From: Escherichia coli 042 | Lineage (GTDB): Bacteria; Pseudomonadota; Gammaproteobacteria; Enterobacterales; Enterobacteriaceae | Length of the DNA: 64,000 nt | Assembly (NCBI RefSeq): GCF_000027125.1 | Contig: NC_017626.1 | Strand: one strand, 5' to 3' | Shown: piece after piece, positions 30,711 to 35,700 of the stretch | Position numbering within the stretch: position 1 is the stretch's first letter | How the letters are laid out: each line of letters opens with the position of its first letter | Notes under the pieces: model-generated | Databases searched by the model: none | What the model was told of the DNA's origin: nothing | Seen by the model: only the letters and a program-made list of their open reading frames with translations | Position numbers and translations under genes: made by a program

Positions 30711-32699
30711 CTACTTTTCTTCCAGGTAACTCTCTTCGAAGATTTCAATAGGGAGTGGGCGAGCAAAAAGGAAGCCCTGGGCAATACCAACGCCCGCTTT
30801 TGCCAGCCAGTCGCGTTGTGCTTCAGTCTCCACGCCTTCGGCAATCATTTGTAAGTTCAGGCTTTGCGCCAACATGATAATTGCAGCAATCATGCTGCTA
30901 TCTTCCGGCAAGCCTTCAACAAACATTTTGTCGATTTTTAACACGTCGATTGGCAACGATTTCATATGCTGCAGCTGACGCAGCCCTGCGTAGCCCATGC
31001 CGAAATCATCCAGCGCCACCCGAACTCCGGCATTGCGCAGCGGACGGAGGATTGCCACCGCAGCATGAGGGTCGTCAATACGTCGGCTTTCTGTCACTTC
31101 CAGAATCAGTGTTCCCGGCTGAATGCGATAGCGGGTTAACAGTTCCAGCATATCCGCCACCATATTCGGGTGCATCAGTTGCAGCGCAGAGAGGTTTACC
31201 GACAAGGGCAGCATAATGCCGCGCTCTTGCCAGGCTGCAAGCAATCGACAGGACTCTTCCAGCACCCAGTGACCGACGGTAACCATCAGCCCACAGCACT
31301 CAATGCGATCGATTAAGCCATCCGGCAGATCCCAACTGCCATCCGGTTGCTGGATACGCAGTAACACTTCCGCACTGACCAGTTTACCGCTGTTCATCTC
31401 GACCTGTGGCTGTAACCAAATCGCAAACTGATGATTTTCCAGCGCATTAAGGATATCGCTCTCTTCCGTCAACCGCTGCTGGGCGGCTTCCATCTGCTGC
31501 GGATCAAAGAACTGAATCTGATTCTTGCCTTTATGGCGAGCGGTAAATGCCGCAGAAATAGCGCGACTGTAAAGCTGTTCGGCGGTGAGATCGCCGTAGA
31601 ACATCGCCACGCCAATGCTACAGTGCGGACGGAGTTGAATACGTTCAATCGGCAGGCGCTCGCTCATGATAGTGAGCACTTGCTGACCTAAAGTGATTGC
31701 GTGCCACGGTTCCTGTACACCATTGGCAATGACAGCAAAGTCATAACCACTAATCTGCGCGAGGATCATACGTGGCGACAGTACCGATTTGAGTTTTTCC
31801 ACCAGCGTCAGCAGCAGAATTTCTCGTTGCGCCTCTTTCAGCACGCCCGCAGTATCACGCAGGGTTTCACAGGTGATGATCATCAGCGCGGTGGTTTGTT
31901 TACGCGCGACAACCTGCTCCAGCATCTCCATCAGCAAGGCTTTGTTCGGCAAATCCGACACCGGGAAGCGCATCGCGTTTTCGTTCTGTTCTTCATAATG
32001 GCGCTGCAGCAATTGCTGGTTGAGGTTGTAACTGCGCACCAACATACCGATTTCATCATCCTGATGCAGACGCGGTAATGCCAGTTGGTGACCAACAAGC
32101 TCCTGGGCTGGGATGGCGTTAAGTTCGCGAGCAATATTGCGTAAAGGATGTAAAATCAGTCGATTAATACACCAGCTGATGGCGACGGTCAGGATAAGCG
32201 ACAAAAGTAAGTAAATGGTCACTAACGTTGAGAGGGTGCTCATCACGAACTTATACATGCGGAAGGAATCCGCCTGTAGCACCAGATAGGCAATTGGCTG
32301 CGGGTTTGCCGGACGTTCCAGCGAGTAAACGCCCAGCGAGATTTGCACCGGTAGCTCAAACAGGCGAGTAACCATTACCGGCACCGGACGCTCTGGAATA
32401 AAACTTTTACGCAGTGCCTGGAACTGGTTGGGCAGCACCACATCGGCACGGCTGACCACGCCTGCCGGTTTAATGCTGGCAAGAATAGCTTCCGCTTCGG
32501 GAATATCGCCTTTCAAAATAGCTGAAGATAAGGGTTCGCGGACAGAGCGAGCAATGCTTTCCAGTTGCGTAGCCGTGTTATAGCGATTCTGCTGGACCAG
32601 ATGGAACAGCAAAACGGTGCAAAAAATAAAAACGAACACCAGGACAACGGCTGCCACCATTGCCATCTGCTTGATTGTTAACGAGCGACTTACGCGCAA
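30711..32699 (-). CDS. pdeK: c-di-GMP phosphodiesterase PdeK (HAMP-GGDEF-EAL membrane protein)
   Basis: 662-aa ORF from a TTG at 32697-32699 preceded by GGAGA; in-frame ATGs at 32666 and 32660 are alternatives. EAL-domain motifs in the C-terminal half. Confidence 0.85.
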
Positions 32700-32780
32700 A
32701 TTGTCTCCCCCCGGAAATCCCAGATTGCCGCCCGAGTATACCCGATCGCAGCGGCATTAAGAGAGGCGCTATCTGAAAAC

Positions 32781-35700
32781 TTACCAGTCGGCGTAAGGTA
32801 TCAGCGGCTGCGGCGGTAAATCCATGTCACCCTGCCATCCGGCGGCGGAATAACGTACGTAGAGCAGGAAATGGCTGGGTGCGTAATCTTTCGCCTGCTG
32901 GATATCAATTGCCGTGCCGACAAACCAGTTGGAAGTAACACGTCGTTCAAGTAATGCCCGCGCCGTGTAGCCAAAGCCCTGACTGCTGCCGCCATCGTTC
33001 GATTGCCGCGCAGCTTCTTCCTGCCAGTCGGTCGGGATCAGATTCATCAGCGGATAACGCGGCATGGTTTTGGTGCGTGAATGCGACCACGAGCCAGACG
33101 CCCCCAGCTCCCACGACCAGTTTTCCGTCCGCTCCCGCCACATCACCGGTATGGCAAACGACAGGTATTCCTGCGGGCTGTAGTAACCGCCCTGACCAAG
33201 TGAGTAGCCACTCAGGTCTTTGTCGTAATGCCAGATCATGTTGTTCAGGCCGATGGTGACGCGGCGATTGTTCTGGTTAATGACCTTATAGTAATAGCCC
33301 GTCATCCAGCGCACGCGCCAGTTATCTTCGACATTTTTACCGGTTAACTGATCACCGCTAAGCGATGCCCAGACGCCGTTTGCTTCACCTTTATCGTAGC
33401 TCAGGCTTAGCCCCACGCCGTCGGCACGCACGCCGCCCCATTTTTTCCCGGTATTGCTCGGGGAGTCTTTTTGCCCGCCAAAGGCCAGCAAAGAACTGGA
33501 GATGGGCCGACGATGGGCGTTAACGGTGTAACCCAGCGGCCCGATATCATCGCTGTAACTGATGCCGCCGACCACATCCACCACATTGAAGCCCATCGGC
33601 GTAGTGCCGATATCCCAGCTCCAGACGTCATTTCGCCAGCCGACCGCCACGCTGGCACCGGAATCCGACTGGCTGCGGTTGCCGCTACAGTCTTGTAATG
33701 TACAGGTGCCCCAGTTGTCATCCCATTTGCCATCGGCATTAGTGGAAAAACTGCCGACGTTCATATTGACGAAATCACTACGAAAGAACATCCGCCCGTC
33801 AGAATACGGCGCATCCACCTGCAACATAGTGGTGTGCGCTTTCAGATCGGAGTAACCACCGGTGCCGCTCGAACCCCAGTAATCGTGCTCGAGGGTGACA
33901 TTAAGATCCTGCTGACGATAGAGGTCCGCCGCATCGCTGCGCACGCCGCGTTTCAGCCAGTCATCTTTCTCGTCATTGCGGGTCAGTCGGGTAAAGGTGT
34001 CGTTATCCTGTGGACGCATCGTGGTCACACCGGATGCAACCATGGCGTCTTTGTAGGTTTCCAGCGCCTGCGTTGGATCGCCCGCCTGCGCTTCAAACTT
34101 CGCACCGTCGCGCAGTACCATCGCGCTTTCCATCGACGGCGGCTGAGATTTTGCCTGCGGGATCAACTTATTAAACGTCTGCTGCGCCGCTGCGGTATCG
34201 CCAAGCTGCGCCTGTGCCAGCGCCACGCGCCGCTGTGTGTTCAGCGAGGCGTTATCGGTAGCGGGCAGTTTCGCCAGCTGGCTACGTGCCGCCGCTTTGT
34301 CACCGGCAGCAATATCCACTTCCGTCAGACCAAGAATGGCATCGGCGTTAGTTGGCTCCCGCGTCAGGACATTCTGATATGCAGCGCGAGCGGCGGTGTA
34401 ATCACGTCGTTGTTGCGCCCAGTCAGCCAGCGTGAGGTCTATGCGCGTGGAAGGTGGTTGCTGGCGCAGCATCGCTTCCGCTTCAGCTTCTTTGCCGCTT
34501 TCTCGCAGGCGATTAGCGGTTTCCAGTACCTGATTGCTTTGCAGTCGATTAACCAGCTCCTGAATATTGCTGCTCCACTGCGCGCGCGGCAGGCTGTTGA
34601 TATGCGCCAGCGCCGCTCTGTCCTGGTCATGACCAGAGAGATACAGCCCGTAAGCGTAAACCTGCTCCGGGTCGTTCGGCTTCTGCTGCGCCAGATTACG
34701 CATTAACGTATCGGCCTGGCTGCGTTGTCCGGCCTGCCAGAGATCCTGCGAAAGTCGGTAAGTAATCCATACGCTGCCGGGGTCCAGCGCCAGTCGTTGC
34801 CGCTGAAGTGCTGCCGCCTGCGCCCATTTGCCCTGGTTTTCCAGTGCCTCTGCCTGCTGTGCCAGACGGTCGTTTTGCAGGCTGCGTTCGATATCATCAA
34901 TGCTTCGCCGCTGACTGGCAGAGAGCGAGGCGATAAACGCTTCAGCTTTTTCTGGCGATTGCTGGCGGTATATATTCGCCAGCCCGCGCACGGCGTTAGT
35001 GTTGCCGCTGTCCATACGCAAGGTCTGCTGATAATAACGTTCGGCGGCGGGATAATCTTTTCGCGCCATCGCCACATCGCCCAGCCCCAGCACTGCATAG
35101 CTGTCGGTGTTATCGACATTACGCGCCTGCTGGAACAGGCGTTCTGCCCGGTCAGGATTATTGGCTTTCAGCGCAGCATCGCCCTGCTGGATCGCCAGCC
35201 AGTAGCGGTTTACTTTCAGGAGACTGTTCCATTTGTCGTTGTTGCTGCTGTGCGGATCCAGGGCGAGGGCTTTTTCCAGATTCGCCACCGCATTGGCGCG
35301 ATCGCCTTTCTGAGAATACGCCTGGCCCAGCGCCCCCAGAGCCTCACTGTCTTTCGGGTTCGCCCGCACTGCCTGTTGTAGTTCGGGAATGGCTTTACCC
35401 GCCATACCAGAGTCCACCGCCGCTAAACCTTGCGCACGAGCGCGGAAAGCAGGGTCGGCCAGCTGTTTTTGCTGTTCTGCCAGTTGCGATTGCGCCGCAG
35501 CTACGCTATCGCCATCACTAAAGATCGAGAGATATTTTTTCAGCGCCGACACACTGGCATCGCTGACGGGCATGTCTTTAATCTGCCCGTACCAGATTTT
35601 AGAGGCCCCTTCGCGCCCGGCGTTTGATTTCGCCATCTGTTCCAGGACGGCAAAACCTTCGTCACGGCGATCGCTACTAAACAGCAATAGCGCCAGATTG

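Follow-up and report, generated by a model that had tools for sequence, protein, structure and literature searches.

Translation of the phosphodiesterase gene pdeK of Escherichia coli 042 very probably starts at a UUG codon conserved across Enterobacteriaceae

Introduction

Among E. coli genes, ATG serves as the start codon in ~83% and TTG in ~3%, and reporter work has found that AUG, GUG and UUG starts initiate at 10–100% of the AUG level. In 2016, Nakahigashi and colleagues mapped the initiating ribosomes of strain K-12 by tetracycline-inhibited ribosome profiling (TetRP), and reported dual starts for many E. coli genes (PMC4909307). The closest described cases come from this work: for ftsH, potA, rfaQ and yedI, as for yhjK (the gene now called pdeK), an ATG annotation gave way to a UUG, upstream or close by, that has initiating-ribosome signal. 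The UUGs of the former four genes were confirmed by start-codon mutagenesis in lacZ fusions, whereas that of yhjK is known from the TetRP signal. Another related case is lacI, for which the fitness effect of the GTG start relative to ATG was measured, in a study that also described conserved non-ATG starts of regulators in Enterobacteriaceae (Cherrak 2024, PMC11445065). The GTG of lacI and the TTG of pdeK are alike in that a weak start is kept family-wide in a low-abundance regulatory protein (PMC11445065). They differ in that the effect of the start codon on fitness has been measured for lacI, while for pdeK selection on the codon is suggested by sequence comparison.

At the protein level, the nearest described relative is HmsP of Yersinia pestis, represented by the NCBIfam model NF008807, with which E. 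coli PdeK shares an equivalog-level score, the domain order and the N-terminus. A difference lies in the target, which for PdeK in E. coli is the cellulose synthase and not the Hms/PGA system (PMC7397504).

The TTG start of pdeK is already known: it has stood in the reference annotation since 2014, and ribosome profiling arrived at it independently in 2016. An earlier reading of the DNA (the original prediction) proposed TTG as the probable start, and did not mention that this is the accepted annotated one. Here we follow up this proposal in a 64,000-nt stretch of the E. coli 042 chromosome (contig NC_017626.1), called the window below. What is new is the depth of conservation of the TTG/Shine-Dalgarno (SD) pair and of the N-terminal tail.

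Results and Discussion

The pdeK gene and its protein family

The gene under study is the following:
30711..32699, minus strand: coding sequence of pdeK (yhjK/hmsP), the longest ORF, with 662 codons plus stop and the same extent in RefSeq

This ORF is pdeK, alias yhjK or hmsP, a gene for a c-di-GMP phosphodiesterase. According to the ORFs and the RefSeq features, it lies directly downstream of bcsC and is followed by dctA. Its product of 662 aa contains, in the order given by Pfam, GAPES3 (residues 36–155), HAMP (178–231), a degenerate GGDEF (247–394) and EAL (415–648), where the HAMP match of 21.2 bits is slightly below the 25-bit gathering score. Against the HmsP equivalog NF008807 the protein scores 781.5 bits, higher than the curated cut-off of 733, with residues 2–659 aligned to profile positions 1–663 of 670. 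That is, profile position 1 corresponds to PdeK residue 2, so the family model opens at the N-terminus of the TTG form. In addition, the hydropathy profile shows hydrophobic segments at residues ~12–34 (TM1) and ~150–185 (TM2). The resulting order of TM1, periplasmic GAPES3, TM2, HAMP, degenerate GGDEF and EAL is the layout of the HmsP/PdeK family.

The start region and its rival codons

The following features of the start region, all on the minus strand, are needed for the analysis:
32697..32699, minus strand: TTG initiation codon of pdeK, as indicated by sequence, annotation, TetRP and conservation
32704..32710, minus strand: Shine-Dalgarno sequence GGGGAGA, its GGAG core 5 nt from the TTG here
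32667..32696, minus strand: codons 2–11, the cytoplasmic N-terminal tail, supplied only by the TTG start
32664..32666, minus strand: ATG at codon 12, coding for an internal Met where TM1 begins; a rival start without SD (anti-SD pairing −0.4 kcal/mol)
32658..32660, minus strand: ATG at codon 14, the start in the 2006 K-12 annotation (anti-SD pairing −2.2 kcal/mol)
32637..32639, minus strand: GTG at codon 21, inside TM1; the second candidate in TetRP
32598..32666, minus strand: TM1, about residues 12–34, by Kyte-Doolittle; GAPES3 begins at residue 36

As had been stated, the longest pdeK frame opens with the TTG at 32699–32697, which in the ORF listing is the first ATG, GTG or TTG past the upstream in-frame stop. 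On the minus strand, GGGGAGA (32710–32704), CAAT and TTG follow one another, and the GGAGA said to precede the TTG is found at 32708–32704 within the longer motif. The coding sequence begins with TTG CGC GTA AGT CGC TCG TTA ACA ATC AAG CAG ATG GCA ATG GTG; the two in-frame ATGs are thus codons 12 and 14, that is, 11 and 13 codons downstream as described.

We then compared the candidates by anti-SD pairing, taken as the best duplex of the 16S 3' end with the 20 nt upstream of the start. The value is −9.4 kcal/mol for the TTG, compared with −0.4 for ATG12 and −2.2 for both ATG14 and GTG15, while the sole pairing of GTG21 (−4.9 kcal/mol) is located ~14 nt away. As background, all TTG or ATG triplets of the 64-kb window, ~2,100 in number, average −2.2 to −2.4 kcal/mol. 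Actually, just 0.5% of the TTG triplets in the window show a pairing as strong as that of the pdeK TTG, and GGAG occurs within −14 to −5 for only 22 of 2,097 triplets. The view that the downstream ATGs lack an SD sequence is therefore borne out.

Two further readings of this short region were considered and dropped. The minimum-energy fold pairs a UUUCC segment with the GGAGA, which would sequester the SD sequence; its z-score of −0.77 is not significant, and the complementary segment is missing outside Escherichia, Citrobacter and Salmonella. A sigma-54-like GG...TTGC spanning the SD sequence and the TTG was also dismissed, as its spacing varies among species.

Annotation and published initiation mapping

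In the K-12 reference NC_000913.3, pdeK (b3529, NP_417986.4) occupies 3683630..3685618, and these 1989 nt correspond to the TTG form; PGAP likewise annotates hmsP with 1989 nt from the TTG. The agreement of the TTG start with the 2014 reference annotation is also recorded in TetRP Table S2 (PMC4909307). Row 51 of this table gives for yhjK a new initiation at 3683641 (U00096.2), a shift of −39 nt relative to 2006, with TTG as the codon (PMC4909307). In Table S3, the right end of yhjK in 2006 is 3683602, 39 nt (13 codons) inside the TTG (PMC4909307), which means that the 2006 start was ATG14. In the three samples, the TetRP depth is 37.6/53.1/21.1 at the TTG and 0/0/0 at the 2006 start (PMC4909307). 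Initiation-site data, which the original prediction had named among the checks to be made, hence contradict a start at a downstream ATG. The second yhjK candidate of Table S2 lies +21 nt from ATG14, i.e., at GTG21, and ATG12 is not listed (PMC4909307).

In the same study, yhjK is flagged as "not tested" for manual inspection and stands outside the lacZ fusion set, and its N'-peptide column in Table S2 is blank (PMC4909307). In the text of the supplements of TRAINSPOTTER, of a Salmonella riboproteogenomics paper and of Giess 2017, no entry for pdeK, yhjK or STM3615 was found. Trypsin would release just "MR" from the N-terminus, a peptide too short to detect, and this would explain the absence of proteomic evidence for the N-terminus.

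The K-12 mapping applies to the same letters as those in strain 042, in that K-12 equals the window base for base from −219 to +120 around the TTG. Over the 381 nt from −260 to +120 there is one difference between them, at −220, inside bcsC. The K-12 PdeK has the same TTG, the same 662 aa and the same bcsC-pdeK-dctA neighbourhood, and differs at residues 199, 408, 436 and 599. Of 5,424 complete E. coli genomes, 5,367 carry the identical 61-nt initiation region, and the one variant examined keeps both the TTG and the GGAGA.

Conservation across Enterobacteriaceae

A comparison with orthologs had also been proposed as a check. For this we used a scan with one genome per species, in which 79 of the 80 closest loci are usable (a locus starting at residue 22 was excluded), covering ~25 genera at 73–98% protein identity; together with the window they make 80 distinct sequences. 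Substitutions were counted by parsimony on a neighbour-joining tree of the 80 sequences. The start codon is TTG in 80/80 of these Enterobacteriaceae sequences among the matches listed, with 0 parsimony changes at all three bases.

The codons that follow are just as informative. In the same 80 sequences, among the matches listed, codons 2–11 are invariant in amino acid even though each is written with 2–5 synonymous codons: their third positions have undergone 2–12 changes (mean 6.7), while the first and second positions show 0 changes except for a synonymous Leu switch between TTA and CTN. The non-coding sites from −30 to −13 have 6–20 changes each in these sequences among the matches listed, and carry no three-base periodicity. 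That is, a codon-type periodicity of substitutions begins at codon 2. Purifying selection at the protein level is switched on at this codon, which would be inexplicable if translation started from ATG12 or ATG14.

Variation dips again over the SD sequence. Among the matches listed, GGAG lies 5–9 nt before the TTG in 78/80 sequences, mostly at 7 nt, and the two sequences without GGAG carry GGGGAAG. The upstream in-frame stop shifts between species and comes down to −5 codons, with no conserved upstream start in the 80 sequences among the matches listed. As for the downstream candidates in this same set of listed matches, Met12 is invariant, codon 14 reads ACG in one species and ATA in two others, and codon 21 is not kept as NTG across species.

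Weighing the possible starts

Based on the above analyses, we consider with high confidence that pdeK is translated from the UUG at 32699–32697, with a GGAG-type SD sequence 5 nt upstream and a tail of charge +3 placed before TM1. The points established are the layout of the sequence, its annotation, the purifying selection from codon 2 and the published signal of initiating ribosomes at the TTG; the probable TTG initiation that had been proposed is supported by annotation, published TetRP and comparative evidence together. An initiation solely at ATG14 or ATG12, with the TTG and its GGAG being fortuitous as in the annotation before 2014, could appeal to the prevalence of ATG as the commonest start (~83% of E. 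coli genes versus ~3% for TTG) and to the use of ATG14 in 2006. However, TetRP reads fall on the TTG and none on ATG14 (PMC4909307), both ATGs are without SD sequence, and ATG14 has been lost in three species and in most of the distant homologues. In addition, the ten codons before ATG12 are invariant as protein and change only synonymously, which is impossible in an untranslated sequence. The chance left to this reading is practically negligible.

A dual initiation, where the TTG is the main start and a minor proteoform arises from ATG12, ATG14 or GTG21 without the charged tail or part of TM1, has somewhat more in its favour, and we still regard it as quite improbable. The second candidate of TetRP Table S2 is GTG21, and the TetRP authors report many dual-start genes in E. 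coli (PMC4909307); since Met12 is invariant, conservation alone leaves room for a minor internal start. On the other hand, pairing at ATG12, ATG14 and GTG15 is at the background level (−0.4 to −2.2 kcal/mol), and a properly spaced SD sequence is absent at ATG12, ATG14 and GTG21, where the only pairing, −4.9 kcal/mol, is ~14 nt off. The TetRP depth is 0/0/0 at ATG14, and ATG12 is not among the candidates (PMC4909307); moreover, NTG is not kept at codons 14 and 21 across species. A protein started inside TM1 would also be unlikely to insert correctly into the membrane.

The N-terminal tail and the proposed mechanism

The original prediction held that the choice of start alters the length of the cytoplasmic N-terminus before TM1. 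This agrees with what we find, as the TTG start adds 11 residues ahead of TM1 (~12–34), for which Kyte-Doolittle windows of 19 residues above 1.6 start at residues 5–20. The 11 added residues include three K/R and no D/E (net +3), and the 15 residues past TM1 include one K/R and one D/E. By the positive-inside rule, such a charged tail would stay cytoplasmic. A cytoplasmic N-terminus and a periplasmic GAPES3 match the described topology of PdeK (PMC7397504).

Residues 1–13 (32661–32699, minus strand) are the best conserved part of the sensor half: in the 80 sequences among the matches listed, no other invariant run within the first 300 residues is as long, and 36% of these positions are invariant overall. 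They are more conserved than membrane topology alone demands, which hints, on the comparison of sequences, that the tail may have a role beyond charge.

The following course of initiation is thereby proposed. The GGAG-type SD sequence would position the 30S subunit so that the UUG comes into the P site, and the initiator fMet-tRNA would read the UUG with a first-position mismatch, so that the protein opens with Met. Residue 2 is an Arg, before which methionine aminopeptidase, given its known specificity, probably leaves the initiator Met in place. The +3 tail of 11 residues would then fix the N-terminus in the cytoplasm and GAPES3 (36–155) in the periplasm, while a protein started at Met12 would be without this charged anchor. 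The UUG in place of AUG would lower the output of PdeK, and from the strong SD sequence combined with UUG a moderate to low output is expected.

Possible selection on the UUG itself

Beyond the position of the start, the identity of the UUG may itself be held by selection across Enterobacterales, with the tail perhaps having a sequence-specific role beyond topology; we put this forward tentatively, as a possibility that is somewhat less probable than its opposite. In the 80 sequences among the matches listed, the initial T of the start codon has never changed, though A or G there would still give a start. Four-fold degenerate sites, 24 in number, have undergone on average 15.5 changes on the tree used above, of which 7.9 are purine/pyrimidine transversions. 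A Poisson estimate for zero is 4e-4, while empirically 3/24 sites also show zero transversions, roughly p = 0.13, so that the support for selection on UUG identity is only suggestive. Such selection is plausible, and would be in line with the result for the GTG of lacI (PMC11445065). If it is true, the combination of a strong SD sequence with a weak start would keep PdeK scarce, or make its synthesis sensitive to initiation fidelity (IF3), which would suit a phosphodiesterase with a local action at the cellulose synthase.

The practical value of these results is small, in that they confirm the 662-aa form as the one to clone, tag and model. Constructs built on the earlier 649-aa form from ATG14 would be without the charged cytoplasmic tail, and their membrane insertion would probably be wrong. 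Overall, pdeK joins the well-supported examples of UUG initiation, and since its UUG/SD pair is old and stable across Enterobacterales, the gene is usable as a test case for weak starts in signalling genes.

Distant homologues

The TTG is also found in distant homologues (L087–L094). A Pantoea-like locus has GGGAG, 8 nt, and then TTG CGC GTA; Affinibrenneria (L087) has GGAGG, 6 nt, and then TTG CGG ATC; and the layout of TTG with GGAG is repeated in further Pectobacteriaceae-like loci. In Ca. Palibaumannia (L093), ATGGAGAAAAGT-TTG matches the SD/TTG spacing, and the gene caller took an upstream ATG. The called starts lie 4 codons (L093) and 21 codons (L094) upstream of the homologous TTG. Since both loci hold GGAGA-N5-9-TTG at the homologous position, their annotated starts are probably too long, as judged from the sequence. 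Photorhabdus reads ATG AAA TTG CGC and Proteus reads ATG AAA CCT; in Morganellaceae, the start may have passed to an ATG two codons upstream.

The tail sequence reaches equally far, as RSLTIKQM is kept in Pantoea-like, Pectobacteriaceae, Palibaumannia, Photorhabdus, Xenorhabdus and Proteus homologues. Met12 is present in all the homologues seen, and ATG14 is missing from most of the distant ones.

Several of these homologues are short. Those in L083–L086 (Photorhabdus, Proteus), L087 (Affinibrenneria) and L088–L090 have just 235–283 aa, with two TM helices and GAPES3, a variable HAMP and no GGDEF-EAL, and may be what remains of a PdeK reduced to a sensor or a scaffold. A gene for a dctA-like SDF transporter adjoins the short gene in L087 and L088, where the TTG start is retained.

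The bcsC-pdeK intergenic region

The region upstream of the start is the following:
32700..32780, minus strand: bcsC-pdeK intergenic region of 81 nt; the bcsC stop codon is at 32783–32781

Translational coupling to bcsC is unlikely, because the TTG comes 81 nt after the bcsC stop and pdeK is provided with its own SD sequence. A same-strand frame of 59 aa from the ATG at 32757 was also rejected: several Citrobacter species carry ATA in place of the ATG, the frame is interrupted by indels in the G-run, and the substitution periodicity follows the frame of pdeK.

The alignment reveals the blocks TTTTCAGATA, CTCTCTTAAT, GGTATACTC and GGCGGC, which show little or no variation in Escherichia, Citrobacter and Salmonella and are absent from Enterobacter, Klebsiella and Kluyvera. 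A TATACT at 32740–32735 (minus strand) lies in the block GGTATACTC. Neither a consensus sigma-70 promoter nor an intrinsic terminator was found in the intergenic region. Judged by their conservation, the blocks may serve pdeK as a promoter or as the binding site of a regulator.

Further upstream, the sigma-54 ChIP-seq site IS44, TTGGCACGGCAATTGAT, was published by Bonocora 2015 (PMC4591121). It maps within the 3'-terminal part of bcsC at 32904–32920 (minus strand), is directed at pdeK and precedes its TTG by 204 bp. At this site, strain 042 reads TCGGCAC, which is the sole difference from K-12 between −260 and +120.

In addition, CsrA sites have been predicted in the 5' UTR of Y. pestis hmsP (PMC4549057), and a control of pdeK translation by CsrA is a possibility. 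The initiation region of pdeK (32700–32725, minus strand) contains two GGA motifs, GGGAUUUCC and GGGGAGA.
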